Positions 481-56,257 of a stretch of 64,000 bases of DNA are shown piece by piece. The position numbers and the translations under genes are program-made. The notes under the pieces were generated by a model, which saw only the letters and a program-made list of their open reading frames with translations, did no database searches and was not told where the DNA came from. The stretch is from an uncultured Planctomycetota bacterium (lineage in GTDB: Bacteria; Planctomycetota; Planctomycetia; Gemmatales; Gemmataceae): positions 136,853 to 200,852 of the forward strand of contig CAWATZ010000006.1 of NCBI GenBank assembly GCA_963784995.1, written 5' to 3'. The number at the start of each line of letters is the position of its first letter. The first letter of the stretch is position 1.

Positions 481-3006
481 TCAACGCCGGAACACGCCCA
501 GCAGGTTGGAAAACTCATCGGTCCACGTGCCGATCTCCGGTCGGGGCCGCAGAGTCCGCCACCGCGAATCCCGCGCCAGGTCCAGGCCGGCCGAGGGGCG
601 GGCCAGGACCACGAAAGTCGAGCGGGTCTTGCCGCGTTTGTCCTCCCCCTCGACGTCCGTGTCATACTGGACCCAGCCGGTCAACCCGGCCTGCTCGGCC
701 TGGTTGGCCAGCACCGGTTCGAGATCCAGATAGCGGTTAGAGACGTTATACACCAACCAGCCCCCCGGCTTCAACTTTTCCAGGTACAGTTTCAGAGCGT
801 CGAAGGTGATCAGATGGATCGGCACCGAATCGGAGCTGAAAGCGTCCAGGAACAGCAGATCGAACGAGTGATCCGGGGCTTCCTGAATCTGTAATCGAGC
901 ATCACCCAGGACCAGGTGCAAGTCCACGCCGCGGGCCCGGCAATCGGCCAGGTAGGTGAAGAAACGCGGGTTGTCGGCCAGCCGGACCACGGCCGGATCG
1001 ATCTCCCAGAAGGTCCACGCCTGGCCGGCCCTGGCATAACTGGCCATCGAGCCGATGCCCAGGCCGGCGACGCCGACCGTTCGCGGCGGGCTCACCTGGT
1101 TGCGCAGGGCAAAGAGCTGGCCGACCGGCCCGGTGCGATGGAAGTAGGTCAGCGGCTCGTCGCGGCGGGCGGGGTCGAGGCTCTGCCAGCCGTGCAGGGT
1201 GGTGCCGTGCAGCAGCCAGCGATACTCCCCGGTCGAATCCTGCTGCACGCACAGCTGGCCGTAGAAGCTGCGTTCGCGCCGCTCGACGTGGTCGCGCAGG
1301 TCGGCGGCGATCCCCGCGGCCAGCAGGACCGCACCGACCGCCAGGCCAAAGCGAACCGGCCGGCCGATCAGGGCAAAGCAAATGCCCACCGGCAAACCCA
1401 CCGCCCACAGCCAGAGGACCCAGGCCAGCAAGTCCTCGTTTTCCCGACCGAGAACGTCCATTTCCAGCTGATTGACGCGCAGGGCCCAGGCGATGATCCC
1501 GGTCAGCAAGCCCAGGGAAACCGGCGCCAGGAAGTCCGCGAGAGCAGGACGGGCTTCCCAGCCCGTCTCAAGGCCGTGGACACCTCGCCACTGGGAAGCC
1601 CGTCCTGCTCTCGCGGACTTCCCCGGGCAAACCAGGCAGGCGACCGTCAGGCCCAGCGGATATTCCAGTGTCCGGGTGAACACCAGCGGCGCCAGCAGGA
1701 CCACCAGCAGTCCGCCCACGACGCCACCCGCCGACATCCACAGGAAATACGCGGTCAGGTGGCGTGGGCCTGGCCGCTGCCGGGCCAGCTCGCCGTGGCA
1801 GACCAGGGCGATCAGGAAGAAGACGGCCAGGTGCAGTTCGATCTCGACGAGCAACGGGGCGCGCAGCCGGAGGACCATGAGGTAAACCAGGACCAGGACC
1901 AGGAGCGGCATCAGTCGGACCGCCCAGAAATGCAGCGAGGCGGCGAAGCGCACGTAGACCAGGATGAAACTGAGCAGGTACAACCCCAGGGGCAACACCC
2001 AGAGCAAGGGAATCGCAGCCACGTCTGTCGTGATGTGGGCCGTCACCGCAGGGAGCAGGGCGGCTGGAACCAGGCTGAGGAGCAGCCAGGAACGAATCGT
2101 GGACCAGGGGAAACGGGCGGGGGGAGGTGCCGAAGGAGCTGGCCGAGCCCCAGGGCGATGCCCGCAACACCCAGGGCGATGCCCTGGGCTATCCTGTTGC
2201 GCCGCTTCGGGGCGAAGACCGGCCTCTCTTTGCCCCGAAGGGGCGCAACAGGATAGCCCAGGGCATCGCCCTGGGTGACCTTGGGGCTCTTGGGTCTCTG
2301 TTCTTCTTGGTCCCTTCCCCCGGATTCCGACCGCCCAGCAGGCCCCAACCAGGAGCAGCAGCACGCCGTAACCCAAGGCCCAGAGCAGCGCTTGCTCGCT
2401 CCGGGTCAGGTTGGGTTCCAGCAGCAGCGGATAGGCGAGCAGGGCCAGCAAGCTGCCGGCGTTGCTGGCGGAATAGAGGAAATACGGATCGCCGGAGTCG
2501 GGATGGCCCGTGCTGGCAAACCAGCGCTGCAGCAGCGGCGCGGTGGTGCTGACCACCGTGAACGGGAGCAGGACCGTGACGGCCAGCAGGGCCAGCAGCC
2601 AGGGCAGCGGGGAGGTGTCGCACGGCGGCAGCCAACCCGCCGGCAGGGCGATGGGCAGGACCAGCAGCGGCAGTGGCAGCAGCACCAGATGCAAAAGCGC
2701 TTGCCGGCGCACTCCGAGCCAGGAAGTGCTGGCGTGAGCGTAGGCATACCCGGCCAGCAGTGCGGCCTGGTAGAATACCATGCAGGTGTTCCAGACGGCC
2801 GGCGATCCCCCCAGCAGCGGCAGCACCAGCCGGGCGAACAGCGGCTGGAGTGTGAAGAGCAGCGTGCTGCTGACAAAGAGCGTCATCGCGTACAGAACCG
2901 GAACCAGGACGTAGCCGGGGCCAGGACGCGACGGGTTCCGGGAGAGTGCGGTTTGCATGATTGGCCTCGGGGCCGGTTTCTTCGCGTTGTGGAACAACCT
3001 CGACAA
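481..3006 (-). CDS. polyamine aminopropyltransferase (spermidine synthase)-like C-terminal domain fused to a large N-terminal polytopic membrane domain
   Basis: 841 aa ORF. The C-terminal third (VGVAGLGIGSMASY...FLDAFSSDSVPIHLITFDALKLYLEKLKPGGWLVYNV) matches the spermidine synthase/SAM-MTase fold. The N-terminal half has many hydrophobic helices. The start may instead be the internal Met at 2958. Two palindromic insertions are read through in-frame (see repeats). Confidence 0.75.
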   Translation of the reverse strand: MSRLFHNAKKPAPRPIMQTALSRNPSRPGPGYVLVPVLYAMTLFVSSTLLFTLQPLFARLVLPLLGGSPAVWNTCMVFYQAALLAGYAYAHASTSWLGVRRQALLHLVLLPLPLLVLPIALPAGWLPPCDTSPLPWLLALLAVTVLLPFTVVSTTAPLLQRWFASTGHPDSGDPYFLYSASNAGSLLALLAYPLLLEPNLTRSEQALLWALGYGVLLLLVGACWAVGIRGKGPRRTETQEPQGHPGRCPGLSCCAPSGQREAGLRPEAAQQDSPGHRPGCCGHRPGARPAPSAPPPARFPWSTIRSWLLLSLVPAALLPAVTAHITTDVAAIPLLWVLPLGLYLLSFILVYVRFAASLHFWAVRLMPLLVLVLVYLMVLRLRAPLLVEIELHLAVFFLIALVCHGELARQRPGPRHLTAYFLWMSAGGVVGGLLVVLLAPLVFTRTLEYPLGLTVACLVCPGKSARAGRASQWRGVHGLETGWEARPALADFLAPVSLGLLTGIIAWALRVNQLEMDVLGRENEDLLAWVLWLWAVGLPVGICFALIGRPVRFGLAVGAVLLAAGIAADLRDHVERRERSFYGQLCVQQDSTGEYRWLLHGTTLHGWQSLDPARRDEPLTYFHRTGPVGQLFALRNQVSPPRTVGVAGLGIGSMASYARAGQAWTFWEIDPAVVRLADNPRFFTYLADCRARGVDLHLVLGDARLQIQEAPDHSFDLLFLDAFSSDSVPIHLITFDALKLYLEKLKPGGWLVYNVSNRYLDLEPVLANQAEQAGLTGWVQYDTDVEGEDKRGKTRSTFVVLARPSAGLDLARDSRWRTLRPRPEIGTWTDEFSNLLGVFRR
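1530..1622. repeat. intragenic hairpin element: 32-nt perfect inverted repeat, 28-nt loop, 93 nt total (31 codons), in-frame inside the 481..3006 CDS
   Basis: Arm 1 is ggaagtccgcgagagcaggacgggcttcccag at 1530-1561. Its exact reverse complement ctgggaagcccgtcctgctctcgcggacttcc is at 1591-1622. Confidence 0.85.
2148..2275. repeat. intragenic hairpin element: roughly 44-nt near-perfect inverted repeat plus a partial direct repeat of cccagggcgatgcc, inside the 481..3006 CDS
   Basis: cccagggcgatgccctgggctatcctgttgcgccgcttcggggc (2170-2213) pairs with gccccgaaggggcgcaacaggatagcccagggcatcgccctggg (2232-2275). The extra cccagggcgatgcc copy is at 2148-2161. Confidence 0.85.
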
Positions 3007-3049: not shown

Positions 3050-4588
3050 ATGCGATCCTTCGCCTGGCTCGTGTTGCCGCTGCTCGCCTGGCCGCTCTGC
3101 TCGGTCCCGACACAGGACCAGGCGCGCCGGCCGGTCGATCATCAGGCCATCGACGCGCTGGTGCGCAAGGCGCAGCAGGAGTGGCAGGTCCCCGGCGTCG
3201 CCGTGGGCATTGTCCGCAAGGGCGAGGTCGTTTATCTCAAGGGCCACGGACTGCGCTCGCTGGCCACGCGGGAACCGGTCACGCCCGATACGCTCTTTCC
3301 GATCGCCTCCTGCACCAAGGCCTTCACCACCACCCTGCTGGCCCAGCTGGTCGGCGAGGGCAAACTCTCCTGGGACGATCCGCCGCGCAAATACGTCCCC
3401 GCATTCCGGCTGAGCGATCCGCTGGCGGATCGGGCAGTCACCTTGCGGGACCTGCTGTGTCATCGGACCGGCCTGGCCGGCCACGATTGGTTGTGGCACC
3501 ACGCCCCGTGGTCGCTCCAGGAGAGCATCCGCCGGGCCGGTCTCCTGCCGCTGGACCGGCCGCTGCGCTCGGCCTTCCAGTACCAGAGCACCATGTTCAC
3601 CGTGGCCGGCTTCGCGGCCGCGAAAGTCGGCGGAGCAGAGTGGGACGAGCTGGTCCGCCGGCGACTGCTGCAGCCGCTGGGCATGAAGGATACGGTCTGC
3701 ACTTCCCGCGAGGCCCGGCGAGCGGCGCGGCGTGAGCCCGCCGGTGGCGAACTGGCGGCCGGCCATCACTATAACGAGCAGGGTGTGGTCGAGGGGATGG
3801 ACGGCTTTTTCATGGAAAACCCCGACCCGGCCGGCTCGATCCACTCCTCGGCCCGCGACCTGTGCCGCTGGCTGCAGTTTCACCTGGACGAGGGCAAGGT
3901 TGCGGGCCGGTCTCTTGTCGCCGCCCGTGCCCTGGCCGAGACGCACACCCCGCAAATGGTCATTCCCCTGACCGGGCTGACCCGCCGGATCCACTCCGAG
4001 ACGGTGCAGATGAGCTACGGCATGGGCTGGGTGATCCACGATTACCGCGGCAAGCTGCTCTGGTCGCACGCCGGGGCCATCGACGGCTACCGGGCTCACC
4101 TCACCCTGGTCCCGAGTGAGGGCCTCGGTCTGGTGCTGCTCAACAACTTGCATCAGACGCAGATGAACCAGGCCCTGTGCAATGGCTTGCTCGACCTGCT
4201 GCTGGACCTGCAGGGGGAGAAGAAGGACTGGAACGCTTACCTGTTCGAGCTGCGCCGGGCCGAAAGTATCCGGATTGCCGAGGAGGCCCGGCAGCGTGAG
4301 AGGCAGCGGCAGCTGGACTCGCAACCGTCCCGACCGCTGGCCGACTATGCGGGCGAGTACGAACATCCCGCGTTCGGGAGCGTGACCATCGCGCTGGAAG
4401 GAGGAACGCTGATCTGGTCGTGGCGGCGGACGCGCTCGGTGCTGGAACACTGGCACTTCAATACGTTTGTTCCGCACCATCCGCTGCTGGACGGGCTGCA
4501 AGTCCAGTTTCAGCTGGACCGTGCCGGGCGAGTGGCCGGTCTGCGGCTGGAAGGGCCGGAACACCTGGAGCTGACGAGAAGGCGGTGA
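3050..4588 (+). CDS. serine hydrolase, beta-lactamase / penicillin-binding-protein family (class C-like), secreted
   Basis: SxxK motif (ASCTKAF). Start chosen at MRSFAWLVLPLLAWPLCS (signal peptide) with gggaga RBS. The ORF-track start at 2957 overlaps the upstream gene. Confidence 0.8.
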   Translation: MRSFAWLVLPLLAWPLCSVPTQDQARRPVDHQAIDALVRKAQQEWQVPGVAVGIVRKGEVVYLKGHGLRSLATREPVTPDTLFPIASCTKAFTTTLLAQLVGEGKLSWDDPPRKYVPAFRLSDPLADRAVTLRDLLCHRTGLAGHDWLWHHAPWSLQESIRRAGLLPLDRPLRSAFQYQSTMFTVAGFAAAKVGGAEWDELVRRRLLQPLGMKDTVCTSREARRAARREPAGGELAAGHHYNEQGVVEGMDGFFMENPDPAGSIHSSARDLCRWLQFHLDEGKVAGRSLVAARALAETHTPQMVIPLTGLTRRIHSETVQMSYGMGWVIHDYRGKLLWSHAGAIDGYRAHLTLVPSEGLGLVLLNNLHQTQMNQALCNGLLDLLLDLQGEKKDWNAYLFELRRAESIRIAEEARQRERQRQLDSQPSRPLADYAGEYEHPAFGSVTIALEGGTLIWSWRRTRSVLEHWHFNTFVPHHPLLDGLQVQFQLDRAGRVAGLRLEGPEHLELTRRR

Positions 4589-5914
4589 CCATCCCATTCC
4601 CCGGGAGTTCGTGAGCTAAGATTATTTCAGGCCGGACAAGAAACAGGCCAGAGAAGAAACCGCTTCGAGATCTCGGGGGAGGGGAAGGCCACGATGGGCA
4701 AGAGGCTGACGGCGACGTTCCTGGTAGCGCTGGTGTTGCTGCTGGGCAATGCGCTGGTGTCCTTCTGGAACGTCACCCGGGTGGTGGACCACGATCACCG
4801 GGTCGCGCACACCCACGAGGTCCTTGCCCAGTTGCGAGGGATCACGTCCGCCCTGTACGACGCCGAGGCCGGCCTGAGCAGCCATTTCCTGATGGGACGG
4901 GCCGAATCCCTCCGCCCCTGCGAGTTTGCCTTTGAGCGCGTGCCGGAGGCGCTGGCGAACCTGGAAAGCATGACGGCCGACAATCGGCGCAGCAGCAGCG
5001 CGTCCGCCGGCTCGGCCCTCTGATCCAGGAGCAGTTCGCGTTGATGCGGCAAATGATTGCTTTGCGCGCGAACCGCGGCCAGGGAGGCCGGGAGGCCCTG
5101 GCCCTGCGCGGACCGGGAAGGCGCAGACCCTCTCGCAAGAGATCCGCAGGCTGCTGGCCATGATGGAAGACGAGGAGAACCAGTTGCTGCGCCAGCGCGT
5201 TCCGCAGGCCCGGACCAGCACCCGGCTGACGTTCTTGACTTTGCTTGCCGCCACCATCCTGGGAGTCGCCCTGCTGGGCTTCGTCGCCCTGCTGACCTGG
5301 CGCGGCATCCACGATCGCCGGCGCGCCGAGGAGGAGCTGCGCCGCGGCCGGGACGAACTGGAGGTCCGGGTCGGAGAGCGCACGCTGGAACTGGCGTCGG
5401 CCAACGTGCGGCTGCTGCGGGAAATCGAGGAGCGCCGCCGGGCCGAGCTGGCCCTGCGAGAAGCCAAGGAAACCGCCGAGGCGGCCAGTCGGGTCAAGAG
5501 CGAGTTCCTGGCCAGCATGAGTCATGAGATCCGCACGCCCATGAACGGCATTCTCGGCATGGTGGAAGTGCTGCTGGATACGGACATCACGGTTGAGCAA
5601 CGCGAGCACCTCGCCATGATCCAGACTTCCGCGGAAGCCCTGCTGGCGATGATCGACGACCTGCTGGATTTCGCGAAGATTGAGGCGGGCAAGGTTGACC
5701 TCGACCCGATCGCCTTCCATCTCCGCGAGACCCTGGGCGATACCCTGAAACTGCTGGAAGTGCGCGCCGCAAGAAGGGACTCTGTCTGGCCTGCCGCATT
5801 CAGCCGGACGTTCCCGAAACCCTGGTGGGCGACGCTGGCCGGCTCCGCCAGGTCCTCATCAACCTGGTGGGCAACGCCATCAAGTTCACCGAGAGGGGCG
5901 AAGTGTTCGTGGTC

Positions 5915-5972
5915 GCAGGACAGGCAGCCTTGCCTGTCCTGGGCGTTGGGACAGGCAAGGCTGCCTGTCCTG
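5915..5972. repeat. intragenic double hairpin (ggacaggcagccttgcctgtcc and its reverse complement ggacaggcaaggctgcctgtcc) in-frame in the histidine kinase
   Basis: Direct reading of 5915-5972. Encodes [21 protein letters not shown], between the N-box and G1 box of the HATPase domain. Confidence 0.8.
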
Positions 5973-6220
5973 CGGGAGTGGAGCTCCATTTTGCCGTCTG
6001 CGACACGGGCATTGGCATCCCGACCGACCGGCAGCGCGTGATCTTCGACCCGTTCACCCAGGCCGACGGCTCGGTGACGCGCCGCTACGGCGGCACCGGA
6101 CTGGGCCTGTCCATCTCCTCGCGCCTGGTCGAACTGATGGGAGGTCGGATCTGGGTGGAAAGCGAAGTGGGCCAGGGCAGCACTTTCCACTTCACCGCGT
6201 GCTTTGCTCGGTGCCCCTCG

Positions 6221-6348
6221 GAAGATGACAAGGTGACAAGGTGGCAAGGTGACAAGGTGACAAAGACCGAAGAGCCAGAACTGGGGGCTTCCTCCGCGGC
6301 TTCTTCTGTCACCTTGTCACCTTGTCACCTTGTCACCTTATCATCTTC
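6221..6348. repeat. intragenic 128-nt palindrome built from 8-mer tandem repeats (gacaaggt x5 on one arm, accttgtc x4 on the other), in-frame between the HATPase and receiver domains
   Basis: gaagatgacaaggtgacaaggtggcaaggtgacaaggtgacaaag ... tctgtcaccttgtcaccttgtcaccttgtcaccttatcatcttc. Encodes EDDKVTRWQGDKVTKTEEPELGASSAASSVTLSPCHLVTLSSSD. Confidence 0.85.
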
Positions 6349-7430
6349 AGACGGGCTGCGAATCCTGGTCGCGGAAGATAACGCGATCAATCAGGTGGTG
6401 GCCCGGCAAATGCTGGAGAAGCAAGGCCATCAGGTCGAAGTGGCCAGCAACGGCAAGGAGGCCCTGGCCGCACTGGAACGGCAATCCTTCGATCTGGTGC
6501 TGATGGACGTGCAGATGCCGGAAATGAGCGGCTTCGACGTGACCGCCGCCATCCGGGCCCGGGAGAATGGGAGCGGGCGGCGCCAGCCGATCATCGCCCT
6601 GACCGCCCATGCCATGAAGGGCGACCGGGAGCGGTGTCTGGAAGCGGGCATGGACGGCTACCTCTCCAAGCCGATCCAGGCGTGCGAACTCTCCCGGGCC
6701 ATTGCCCTGGTGGTCGGCGGGAAGCAGCAAGTCCCCGGGAGTGCCAGGCCGGTTCGCCCTGACCCGGCAGCTGACGCAGCCGGGCACCCGCTTGCGGGTC
6801 TGCCACCGGCCGGGCGGAACACCCACGTCCTGGACCGCGCCGCCACTCTGGAGCGCTACCGTGGCGACCTCTCCTTTGTCCAGACCCTCGCGTCCCTGCT
6901 TGTCGAGGAGTCTCTCCGCTCCCTGGCGGAGATGCGGGATGCCCTCCGGGGTAAGGAAGCCGACCGGTTGGGGCAGGTGGCGCACAAGTTCGTCGGCGCC
7001 GTGAGCAGCTTCGTCGCCCCGGAGGCAACCGAGGCGGTCCGGCAACTCGAAGCCCGGGCCAAGGCGGGAGACTTGCCAGAGGCGGGCCAGGCGCTGGCAA
7101 CCTTGGAAGTAACCCTGGCCCGGCTGACCGCTGCCCTGGGTGAGCTGCAACAAGGGCCCGAACGCGTTGGCGCGGGCTGAGTTCGAGGACCACTCCTGTC
7201 GATGAACTGGAGTCGGCGGCACAGGAGTCCCACCTGACAGCCGAGCAGTTGCAACGGCTCTATGAAACGGTGTGCGGTGAATCGGAGACTGGAGCCGCAG
7301 GCGATCAGAGGGATAGCACACTTCGTCTCCGCCCGATGTTGCTGGAGATCCTGGTGCGATTGTTCGGCAAGGCTCCCGGCAGTGACCAACGCCAGGGACA
7401 GTCGTGACGTGCAGTCAGCGGAGAGTTTCA

Positions 7431-11380: not shown

Positions 11381-11412
11381 GCGATCCTCGCAAAACAGTC
11401 CGGACCAGAGCC

Positions 11413-11496
11413 GACGAGCCGCCGCTTCGATTTATCGTTTCGCGTTCGGCCACAAGTCGGCGAACGCGAAACGATAAATCGAAGCGGCGGCTCGTC
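11413..11496. repeat. REP-like intergenic palindrome, family 1 (core cgatttatcgtttcgcgttcg...cgaacgcgaaacgataaatcg), copy 1 of 3
   Basis: 36-nt perfect arms gacgagccgccgcttcgatttatcgtttcgcgttcg / cgaacgcgaaacgataaatcgaagcggcggctcgtc. Related copies at 45914..45962 and 56171..56257. Confidence 0.9.
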
Positions 11497-11501
11497 GGAC
11501 A

Positions 11502-12845: not shown

Positions 12846-12964
12846 CGGCTGGCCTCCGTCGGGCCTGCCCGACAGGTCGCACGCCTGCGTGCACCGGCCG
12901 GCAGGCCGGCCTGCGTTGGGGGCCGGCCTTCCCAGGCCGGCCCGGACGGGCTCGGAAGCCCGTC

Positions 12965-13696
12965 CTACCTGATGCTCGCGCTGGGAATGGTTCGGTCGCT
13001 GGCGTCCTCCACGCGCCCGGCCACGAGCCGGACGACCCGGTTCGTGGCGGAAACTATCTCCATGTTATGGGTCACCATGATGATAGTCAGCCCCTCCTGG
13101 CGGTTCAGGTCGCGCAGCAGGGCCACGATGGAGGCCCCATTCTCCACGTCGAGGTTGCCGGTCGGCTCGTCGGCCAGGAGGATGCGCGGCCGATTGATCA
13201 GGGCCCGGGCGATGGCGGCCCGCTGCATCTCGCCGCCGGAAAGCTCGCGCGGCTTGTGGTTGAGCCGATGGCCCAGGCCGACGCGCTCCAGCAATTCGGT
13301 GCCGCGCCGCCGCAGTTCCCTGGCCTTGCCGTACCAGCTGAAGACCGACTGGGCGATCATCTGCGGCACCAGCACGTTCTCCAGGGCGGTCAGCTCCGGC
13401 AGCAGATGGTAAAACTGGAAGATGAAGCCGAAGGTCTGATTGCGAATCCGGTCGCGCTCCTGCGGCGGCTGGTTGTCGATGCGCTGATGTCTTTGCAGTT
13501 CCAGCCAGACCTCGCCCTGGTCTGGCTTGTCGAGCGTGCCCAGCAGGTGCAGCAGGGTGCTCTTGCCCGAGCCGGAATGGCCGGTGACGCTGAGGAACTC
13601 GCCCTGGTCCACTTCCAGGTCCAGGCCGCGCAGCACCGGAGTCTGGATGGCGTTCTTGCGGTACGTCTTGTGCAGATTGATCGCTGCCAGGAGCAT
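12965..13696 (-). CDS. lolD: ABC transporter ATP-binding protein, LolD/MacB-type (partner of an FtsX-like permease)
   Basis: 243 aa: Walker A GHSGSGKSTLLHLLG, signature LSGGEMQRAAIARAL, Walker B ILLADEPTGNLD. The 603-aa ORF-track entry 12965..14776 is a composite with out-of-frame sequence upstream. Confidence 0.8.
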   Translation of the reverse strand: MLLAAINLHKTYRKNAIQTPVLRGLDLEVDQGEFLSVTGHSGSGKSTLLHLLGTLDKPDQGEVWLELQRHQRIDNQPPQERDRIRNQTFGFIFQFYHLLPELTALENVLVPQMIAQSVFSWYGKARELRRRGTELLERVGLGHRLNHKPRELSGGEMQRAAIARALINRPRILLADEPTGNLDVENGASIVALLRDLNRQEGLTIIMVTHNMEIVSATNRVVRLVAGRVEDASDRTIPSASIR

Positions 13697-18506: not shown

Positions 18507-19023
18507 GAAGCAACAAGAAATCCGAGGGATTCGGTGCCAGGTGAGCCCCAGAAAAGAGTTGCCGCACGCAGGGTTTTCCTGTCGAACCAAACACAAGCTC
18601 CCACCAATCGCCCCCCGCCATGAAAAGCTTGCCGCGCCTGCTTCTTACTTTCAACACTCCGGTGAGAGCCCTCTGCGAGGCCGGTGGAAGAAGAGATCGG
18701 AACACTAATCCACGCTGATCCCCACTAATCGGAATGCGGGTCTCCTGCCTTCAATTAGCGAAGATTAGCGCAGATCAGTGTTCCTGCGCTACCGGCCCCG
18801 CGGAGGGGTGGCCTCCCGTGACCGTCAGCGGGGCTGAAACAGCCTTCCCTGGAATGCATCGGACAGATTCGCTTGCCTGCTTTTGTTGCCCCTGAGCGGG
18901 GCGATCGGTCTGTGACACAAGAGGTATCAGGTCGAGCAGATCCGGATCTGTGGAAGGGGCGGTCGGGCAACCGCCGCCCCGACCCGGCATGTCGATACCA
19001 GCTGCAGCCCCTCACTTCGCGGC

Positions 19024-19048
19024 CCCTCTCCCACAAGGGGAGAGGGGA
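19024..19048 (-). terminator. CCCCTCTCCC-loop-GGGAGAGGGG hairpin immediately downstream of the Gfo/Idh/MocA gene stop (motif recurs at 45866 and 45984)
   Basis: cccctctcccacaaggggagagggg begins 11 nt 3' of the TAA at 19061..19059. Confidence 0.45.
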
Positions 19049-19058
19049 GGAAAGCCCG

Positions 19059-30687: not shown

Positions 30688-30776
30688 GGCCGAGCCGCGC
30701 ACGCAGCGCAGCGGAGTAAGCGGTGCGGGAGCCTGCAGGGCCGCTTACTCCGCTGCGCTGCGTGCGCGGCTCGGCC
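30688..30776. repeat. 36-bp perfect inverted repeat (ggccgagccgcgcacgcagcgcagcggagtaagcgg / ccgcttactccgctgcgctgcgtgcgcggctcggcc) with 17-nt loop, between the kinase gene and the MVP gene
   Basis: Direct reading. Possible terminator/insulator or REP-like element. Confidence 0.8.
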
Positions 30777-30879
30777 TTTCTTCTCCGGCGCAGGCCGGGG
30801 ACACAGCAGAAAGCCCACGCATGTCCTGCGTTCCCATACTGTCTCCTTTCTCTCTCCCCAACAACTGGAGGAAGTTCCA

Positions 30880-45834: not shown

Positions 45835-45859
45835 GGTCCTGTCTCCGTTTCGGGCTTTC

Positions 45860-46010
45860 TTTCTCCCCTCTCCCCTTGAGGGAGAGGGGGTGGGGTGAGG
45901 GGAAGAGCCTGGCTGATTTATCGTTTCGCACTGATCCAGGTGAGCGCGAAACGATAAATCGAAGACAACCCTTCACCCCCAAACCCTCTCCCTCAAGGGG
46001 AGAGGGGAGA
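45860..46010. repeat. composite nested palindrome: CCCTCTCCC hairpin, family-1 REP core (tgatttatcgtttcgcac...gcgcgaaacgataaatcga), CCCTCTCCC hairpin
   Basis: 45866-45890 cccctctccccttgagggagagggg; 45914-45962 REP core; 45984-46007 ccctctccctcaaggggagaggg. Lies between the paralogue-3 stop and the paralogue-2 start. Confidence 0.85.
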
Positions 46011-46020
46011 AGGATCTCCG

Positions 46021-54422: not shown

Positions 54423-54500
54423 GAAATGGCGAGCGGCGCGGCGTCAGCCCGCCGGTAAGGGCTTCCTACCGGCGGGCTGACGCCGCGCCGCTCGCCATTC
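54423..54500. repeat. family-3 palindrome (about 37-bp arms, gaaatggcgagcggcgcggcgtcagcccgccggtaagg / ccttaccggcgggctgacgccgcgccgctcgccatt); degenerate relative at 36863..36966
   Basis: Direct reading. Shares ggcgagcggcRcggcgtcagcccgc with the 36863 copy. Confidence 0.8.
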
Positions 54501-56170: not shown

Positions 56171-56257
56171 GACGAGCCGCCTCTTCGATTTATCGTTTCG
56201 CGTTCGCCCACAAACCAGTGAACGCGAAACGCTAAATCAAATGCCCGCCGCTCGTCG
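56171..56257. repeat. REP-like palindrome, family 1, copy 3 (right arm partly degenerate)
   Basis: gacgagccgcctcttcgatttatcgtttcgcgttcg...gaacgcgaaacgctaaatcaaatgcccgccgctcgtcg. Confidence 0.85.

Follow-up and report, generated by a model that had tools for sequence, protein, structure and literature searches.

When a long and perfect palindrome lies within an intact protein-coding gene, was it dropped in as a ready-made mobile element, or was it made on the spot from sequence already present there? The question is posed by a 93-nt perfect inverted repeat at positions 1530-1622 of a 64,000-nt stretch of DNA (hereafter the window; contig CAWATZ010000006.1 of assembly GCA_963784995.1) from an uncultured Planctomycetota bacterium of the family Gemmataceae, where it is read in frame by a minus-strand gene (481-3006) for a fused MFS/spermidine-synthase-like membrane protein. 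A preliminary description of the window had likened the palindrome to the Rickettsia palindromic elements (RPEs) and had proposed that an alignment with orthologues would display it as an insertion of 31 residues. Our best reading is instead that a variable loop was rewritten recently and largely in place by a palindrome that is apparently single-copy, rather than by the arrival of a ready-made 93-nt element. In the mechanism that we favor, to which we give a probability of about 0.45, a hairpin core of the repetitive extragenic palindromic (REP) kind would have been extended into the native codons of the gene by a replication template switch, the product being tolerated as it encodes a disordered loop.

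A perfect palindrome within an intact reading frame

The arms of the palindrome occupy 1530-1561 (GGAAGTCCGCGAGAGCAGGACGGGCTTCCCAG, with GGAAGTCCGCGAG at its outer end) and 1591-1622. They are 32 nt long each, are complementary at all positions (32/32, 100%) and flank a 29-nt spacer at 1562-1590, so that the whole comprises 93 nt or 31 codons, spanning G462-F492 of the open reading frame (ORF). The arm length and the total had been given correctly in the preliminary description, but its loop of 28 nt is one short of the actual spacer, and the peptide that it quoted as encoded by the palindrome (CPGKSARAGRASQWRGVHGLETGWEARPALADF, 33 residues) includes C460 and P461, which lie outside it. The arm on the 3' side of the gene (1530-1561) encodes W483-F492 (WEARPALADF). 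The spacer, together with the last base of the 1591-1622 arm, encodes W473-G482 (WRGVHGLETG), with seven of these ten codons ending in G or C (GC3 7/10). The arm on the 5' side of the gene (1591-1622) encodes G462-Q472 (GKSARAGRASQ) and starts one base after the codon for P461 (1624-1626).

A palindrome of this kind is far beyond chance. Even with up to 3 mismatches allowed, the 32-nt arm finds no match in 100 shuffled versions of the window and no second one in the real window, and perfect inverted repeats of at least 12 nt number 19 pairs in the window (about a dozen distinct palindromes) against a mean of 0.6 in block shuffles. As RNA, the gene strand of the palindrome is predicted to fold with -89.7 kcal/mol (z = -9.7), and the predicted DNA fold has -51.2 kcal/mol (z = -11.9). 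The open frame across it is by itself weak evidence, because at 67% GC only one of the six frames contains a stop codon. No target-site duplication was detected, as the flanks (...GGCGCCA/GGAAG and CTTCC/CCGGGCA, the slash marking the palindrome end) contain no direct repeat at the ends of the palindrome. Its sole direct repeat is internal, formed by AGCCCGTC at 1560-1567 and 1597-1604. Each 32-nt unit further contains an internal imperfect palindrome (GGAAGTCC / GGAC-GGGC-TTCC pairing), and two such inverted units across a short spacer conform to the architecture of REP doublets and REPINs. A different parse was also considered, in which the 8-nt direct repeat AGCCCGTC borders 37 nt that interrupt a 56-nt hairpin centered on TCCC. 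In formal terms this parse amounts to the 32+29+32 description with the 6-nt CCCGTC added, and it is hence indistinguishable from it.

The ORF, which as previously described reads straight through the palindrome, has 841 codons when counted from the first possible start, while the database copy of the protein (P0001) has 825 residues. The protein matches the NCBIfam model NF037959 with 50.4 bits (cut-off 40) and has 6784 homologues, whose names include Gemmataceae and Singulisphaera; PSCyt/PSD1 domains are found on one relative's contig (L009), and these affinities agree with a position in the Planctomycetota. Identity to the nearest orthologue, P0002, amounts to 73-79% at the protein level and 79% over aligned codons, and the divergent beta-lactamase/DUF3471 gene adjoining the host gene retains this synteny on the contigs L001, L009 and L010. 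An AlphaFold2 model of the protein, built from 81 sequences (pLDDT 87, pTM 0.89), displays two disordered stretches, at residues 230-299 and about 460-486. In the second of these the pLDDT drops below 50 at residues 467-481, between helices at 448-458 and 487-511, the latter being a confidently predicted helix that starts at the LADF codon region of the arm. The palindrome is accordingly modeled as being translated into a floppy, disordered loop between membrane helices, which bears out the earlier placement between transmembrane segments, and with the reading frame intact its position is compatible with the predicted fold (residues 462-486 disordered).

The extreme stability and perfection of the hairpin, and its location between two transmembrane helices, at which pausing might conceivably have an effect, might suggest a structure under selection in the coding region, such as a hairpin for mRNA stability, an RNase III site, a translational pause aiding membrane insertion or a binding site formed by a DNA cruciform. 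This alternative is very unlikely. The structure is absent from 80 of the 80 aligned orthologues; no Rfam family reaches its threshold for 1530-1622 in a search run at a permissive setting, and neither a U-tract terminator nor a promoter was found at the palindrome. The perfection of the arms is more simply explained by youth. Generic miRNA-precursor models of Rfam scored at half of their gathering score or less and were dismissed as matches to the mere shape of a hairpin.

The orthologous loops and the two parts of the arm

Comparison with orthologues indicates that the palindrome is not a discrete segment added between host residues left intact on both sides. In the 81-sequence alignment the window has 29 residues in the loop from P461 to D491, the median of the 80 orthologues being 14 (47 of them have exactly 14; range 10-44), and the 93 nt of the window correspond to 48 nt in the closest orthologue. 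The net gain is thus 45 nt or 15 residues, as against the 31 residues that the palindrome encodes and that a clean insertion had been expected to add. Rather than sitting within the ancestral loop, the palindrome fills the whole stretch from the conserved P461 to the conserved L-x-D-F start of the following helix, and the L-x-D-F codons themselves lie within its arm. D491 is an aspartate in 79 of the 81 aligned sequences (98%), and its codon (1534-1536) is situated in the 1530-1561 arm, five bases from the outer end. The columns beside it are likewise typical of the family (L/A at -1 and L/V/F at +1), and the segment LADFLAPVSLG aligns to match states at top posterior probability in a profile derived from 89 orthologues. 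At the DNA level the helix start reads CGT CTC GAC TTC CTC in the orthologue P0004 and CTC GCG GAC TTC CTG in the window.

On this comparison, the arm on the 3' side of the gene carries native codons in its outer ~12 nt (1531-1542, coding for L489-A490-D491-F492). The presence of the conserved D491 codon and its neighbors inside the arm implies that the ends of the palindrome are not the ends of a foreign element. Moreover, with native codons in one arm, the complementary 12-13 nt that follow the P461 codon must be a templated reverse-complement copy of existing gene sequence. The arm on the gene's 5' side (1591-1622) would then be the copied one, a direction of copying that we infer from the native codons in its partner.

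The peptide encoded by the palindrome occurs in none of the 80 aligned orthologues. An ancient and coincidental feature shared with orthologues, which is what the preliminary description had set against its own proposal, is thereby ruled out. An attempt to reconstruct the ancestral loop from the DNA of P0002, P0003 and P0004 was set aside, as outside the L-D-F codons the loop sequences agree at a nearly random level (18/48 by eye). Neither a possible K/Q-S match at the 5' side of the loop nor a 4-nt AGTC/GACT quasi-palindrome in P0002 exceeds chance level, and no weight is placed on them.

The inner part of the palindrome presents a different picture. In codons 466-488, which cover the inner arms and the spacer, the GC3 is 0.52 (12/23) versus 0.856 in the rest of the gene (binomial p = 1.4e-4), while the outer four codons on each side of the palindrome have a GC3 of 4/4. 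In the putative source arm, that on the gene's 3' side, the outer four codons are ancestral, whereas the inner six have a GC3 of 2/6 and lack a recognizable orthologous counterpart. Judging from these figures, the core of the palindrome is not native and has the composition of non-coding DNA.

A possible source of this core is indicated by a 20-nt mini-hairpin, GACGGGCT-TCCC-AGCCCGTC (1548-1567, plus strand), which is made up of the inner end of the 1530-1561 arm and the first 6 nt of the spacer. A second copy, GACGGGCT-TCCG-AGCCCGTC, is found at 12945-12964 on the minus strand, directly after the stop codon of an ABC-transporter gene and amid GC-rich hairpins. The two copies differ by a single loop base, the pattern is present at these two places in the window and no others (0.1 expected), and their local alignment has a Smith-Waterman score of 39, the maximum in 347 control chunks being 28. 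This recurrence implies that an extragenic hairpin of the genome, REP- or terminator-like in kind, has a module in common with the palindrome core. The region of the second copy (12883-12965, between the ABC-transporter and an aminotransferase gene) contains at least three GC-rich hairpins in a run, two of which have the same CT-TCCS-AG top: one is GGGCCGGCCT-TCCC-AGGCCGGCCC and the other is the mini-hairpin shared with 1530-1622.

Hairpin repeats in the gene, the window and related genomes

The window contains about a dozen long palindromes, most of which are intergenic and placed after genes; most are imperfect, and several are multicopy (the I5/I16/I7-core and I8 families). At least four, all within the first 7 kb, are translated in frame as part of a coding sequence (1530-1622, 2168-2277, 5914-5974 and 6208-6361). 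The second of these lies in the same gene as the palindrome under study, in its other variable loop. It is 110 nt long, with 51-nt arms that are 96% complementary and an 8-nt spacer, and constitutes an inverted doublet of the Acido-Lenti-1 motif (Rfam RF01687), with 40.1 bits for one arm (gathering score 37) and 28.5 bits for the other. It forms a 43-residue insert at site 211 of the family profile, is translated as a disordered loop of ~43-60 residues and has a GC3 of 0.49. A motif catalogued as a candidate sRNA is therefore found here in translated form, as an inverted doublet. On a relative's contig, three copies of a 23-nt piece of an Acido-Lenti-1-like arm lie within 200 nt of each other (L007:9578-9773), which suggests that these genomes contain the motif as a dispersed or tandem repeat.

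Among 120 homologues of the host protein, insertions cluster at profile sites 211, 395 and 423, site 395 being the loop that holds the palindrome 1530-1622. In P0002 (L001:1554-1594, assembly GCA_037024435.1) the palindrome that occupies site 211, GATTTATCGTTTCGCG...CGCGAAACGATAAAT, comes from a different family and is translated in frame as TDLSFRAEERETIN. Members of this GATTTATCGTTTCGCG family are intergenic in the window, at 11411-11498, 56184-56241 and 45915-45964. At the same site P0116 carries a 28-nt inverted repeat of a third family, and at site 395 P0096 (L007:3946-3973) has a perfect palindrome of 14+14 nt (TCGTTCCCAAGCT/AGCTTGGGAACGA) within a 28-residue insert. Thus, across the orthologues, no fewer than four mutually unrelated hairpin sequences have entered the two variable loops of the host gene, and the presence of hairpin DNA at these sites in other lineages implies that its entry into these loops is recurrent.

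The remaining two in-frame palindromes lie in a neighboring gene for a hybrid histidine kinase (5160-7180), which is split over two frames, with the HisKA domain in frame 0 and the HATPase_c, REC and Hpt domains in frame 2. The switch near 5770 might be either a frameshift or a sequencing error. I12 (5914-5974) has perfect 26-nt arms and is read in frame as 21 residues in a variable loop of the HATPase_c domain, while I4 (6208-6361), whose arms consist of AAGGTGAC octamer repeats, is in frame in the linker to the receiver domain. The apparent frameshift hints at imperfect assembly and, given that chimeric reads can create perfect palindromes, it might be asked if the palindrome 1530-1622 is itself an artefact of assembly or polishing, i.e. 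a fold-back chimera fixed in the consensus. This is the least probable of the explanations considered here. The site lies in the interior of a 1.44-Mb contig, away from its ends, the ORF is intact and the palindrome's length divisible by three, and fold-back artefacts are usually of kilobase scale. Furthermore, the many other long hairpins of the window are mostly imperfect and in several cases multicopy, and are biological features of this genome.

The abundance of such repeats lends weight to a different alternative, according to which the palindrome arrived as a unit when a mobile palindromic element from a multicopy family (a REPIN, an RPE-like element or a miniature inverted-repeat transposable element) inserted in frame, with a simultaneous 48-nt deletion or a homology-assisted replacement of a CTC-GAC-TTC-C target. 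In its favor are the REP-doublet architecture, the non-coding composition of the core, the multicopy hairpins of the window, the Acido-Lenti-1 doublet in the same gene and the palindromes of P0002, P0116 and P0096 in the same two loops, as well as the intragenic REP dimers (PMC3733652) and RPEs (PMC10969869) described from other bacteria. Nevertheless, we consider unit insertion, the main rival, less likely than a rewrite in place. The net gain of 15 residues and the conserved native codons in one arm sit poorly with it, and it has to assume that L-A-D-F was recreated in register or that the insertion was guided by homology, and that all other copies are elsewhere in the genome.

The searches for further copies, which within the source genome covered the 64-kb window, also weigh against a multicopy element. 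Neither a full nor a half copy of the arm was recovered in the window (up to 3 mismatches; short-word BLAST), and no copy of the palindrome was present in ~90 kb of contigs from six orthologue-bearing relatives or in plasmid and phage collections. When 596 Gb of GTDB species genomes and the JGI metagenomes, neither of which contains the source genome, were scanned for exact 20-mers and 21-mers, four single-arm matches of 20-22 nt in unrelated phyla were recovered, which are consistent with chance. An exhaustive HMMER search with the six-frame translation recovered zero matches in 1.84 billion protein representatives, a weak negative as it covers cluster representatives only and would reveal just same-frame copies at roughly 70% identity or more. 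A protein word-index search with the six-frame translation likewise returned nothing; however, it missed P0001 itself, which the same query detects locally with E = 7e-15, and its result was discarded. Other hairpin families of the window provide an internal control, in that they were re-found by the same searches in the window and in related contigs: within the window the GATTTATCGTTTCGCG family and the I8 arm were each recovered three times and the GGGAGAGGGG family twice, L001 has one further member of the GATTTATCGTTTCGCG family, and the Acido-Lenti-1-like motif is present in L007. Finally, no transposase or RAYT was detected among the 31 window proteins scanned with Pfam, and the unpaired GTAG/CGTC tag is absent from the unit, which contains no GTAG and has CGTC only within paired stem sequence.

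Several of the other hairpins of the window have features of their own. A perfect hairpin with 33-nt arms at 54425-54499 follows a PDZ-protein gene and is succeeded by a T-run. Half-copies of its arm (25-29 nt, 96%) are found at 3717-3745 and 36870-36894, one of them inside the beta-lactamase/DUF3471 gene beside the host gene. The hairpin at 45858-46014 is a nested composite, in which outer arms of the CCCCTCTCCC/GGGAGAGGGG family, each itself a hairpin, enclose a palindrome of the GATTTATCGTTTCGC family. A solo outer unit occurs at 19023-19049, and the same outer family is found in frame in P0116 (L008:10693-10770). A perfect hairpin with 36-nt arms (30688-30776) precedes a 799-residue ORF (30723-33122, plus strand) with Vault, Vault_2, Vault_3 and MVP_shoulder domains (E down to 1e-43), which is a bacterial homologue of the Major Vault Protein.

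Origin of the palindrome and its relation to known systems

Of the known processes that generate palindromes, template-switch mutations, as described under quasipalindrome correction and the four-point model (10.1101/2021.04.15.439925, PMC5453318, PMC8604942), are reminiscent of the present case in their products. They create perfect hairpins in a single step or homogenize the arms of existing ones, put an exact reverse complement of adjacent sequence in place of the former one with an arbitrary change in length, and can occur inside genes and alter the encoded proteins. In the palindrome 1530-1622, the one arm is an exact reverse complement of the other at a distance of 29 nt. The differences are that 32-nt arms are at the long end of the described range and that the source arm is only partly recognizable as ancestral, with a core that seemingly comes from a repeat-like hairpin.

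The likeness to intragenic REP dimers and REPINs (PMC3733652, PMC3116915) resides in the two inverted units with a spacer, the size of ~90-110 nt, the ~30 residues encoded in frame in a tolerant part of the protein, and a genomic background rich in extragenic hairpin repeats after stop codons. Intragenic REP dimers encoding 20-30 residues are on record, including from the PVC group (PMC3733652). REPINs, however, are present in tens to hundreds of copies, for the most part extragenic, in contrast to the one copy in 64 kb seen here, and the palindrome 1530-1622 differs from them in having no GTAG or unpaired CGTC tag, no RAYT in the window and perfect arms that reach into native codons.

The RPEs (PMC10969869) share with it the occurrence of palindromic DNA in a coding gene, with the frame kept, in a surface loop compatible with the fold. 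They form multicopy families of ~100-150 bp with a conserved encoded peptide and are clean additions relative to orthologues, while here one copy was found, the net gain is 15 residues instead of 31, an arm contains native codons, and the host, a planctomycete, is free-living and has a large GC-rich genome. The RPE-like interpretation of the preliminary description thus holds for the lineage-specific and in-frame nature of the palindrome, and relatives do carry hairpins in coding loops, but the clean insertion fails and no multicopy family was found where it was searched for. As an analogy of process, the comparison with RPEs is partly supported and appears reasonable. Acido-Lenti-1 (RF01687; PMC2864571) is comparable in that structured repeat motifs enter the loops of this gene, as in its other in-frame palindrome (2168-2277), but it bears no similarity to 1530-1622, which has no Rfam match. 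In conclusion, the palindrome 1530-1622 adds one more case to a known kind of event and does not constitute a new system, its peculiarity being the native codons inside a perfect arm.

The origin by template switching that we prefer would proceed in steps. A short REP-like hairpin sequence may first have entered the loop or arisen in it. A replication template switch, by fold-back or by a strand switch, could then have made the opposite arm as an exact reverse complement of ~32 nt including the native codons, overwriting part of the old loop with a net gain of 45 nt. Survival in an intact gene would have been limited to an in-frame outcome in a loop tolerant of length changes. The complementarity of the arms at 32 of 32 positions indicates a recent event, as expected of a single act of copying, and the reading frame and the loop position account for the survival of the palindrome without requiring a function. 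Predicted side effects of such a palindrome include a 32-bp mRNA duplex that would slow ribosomes and might be a substrate of RNase III, and the potential for cruciform formation in the DNA.

Several points weigh against an origin by template switching. The ancestral allele is missing, as no close relative that retains it is present in the databases, the nearest orthologue being just 79% identical in DNA and its loop too diverged to tell which bases pre-existed, and the spacer and inner arm are not derivable from any orthologue. The GC3 of 2/6 in the inner arm implies that a single template switch from purely native sequence is insufficient, so that two steps are needed. The axis of the palindrome (~1576) is off-center with respect to the loop of the mini-hairpin (1556-1559). 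Hairpin repeats for which insertion as units is clear abound in the genome, the host gene included, and the searches for copies in the source genome itself covered the 64-kb window, i.e. less than 5% of that genome. Lastly, the end of a foreign element could have recreated L-A-D-F by chance, the probability of which we put below ~1% as an estimate rather than as the outcome of a test.

By itself, the locus amounts to one tolerated indel in one loop. It is nevertheless an unusually clean example, as the combination of a 32-bp perfect stem in an intact gene with conserved native codons in one arm allows palindromes made on the spot to be separated from those dropped in, two readings that are usually confounded. 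The hairpins in the loops of the host gene, along with the two in the neighboring histidine-kinase gene, suggest that planctomycete genomes would be a good place to measure the contribution of hairpin DNA to new protein loops. A more far-reaching proposal, which we regard as rather doubtful, is that hairpin repeats and template switching routinely remodel protein loops in this planctomycete lineage, with the present locus as an intermediate in which a REP-like mini-hairpin has grown into a long perfect palindrome by copying host codons. If this is true, palindromic elements could originate or lengthen within genes in this manner, and an RPE-like evolution of protein loops would become visible in free-living bacteria with large genomes.

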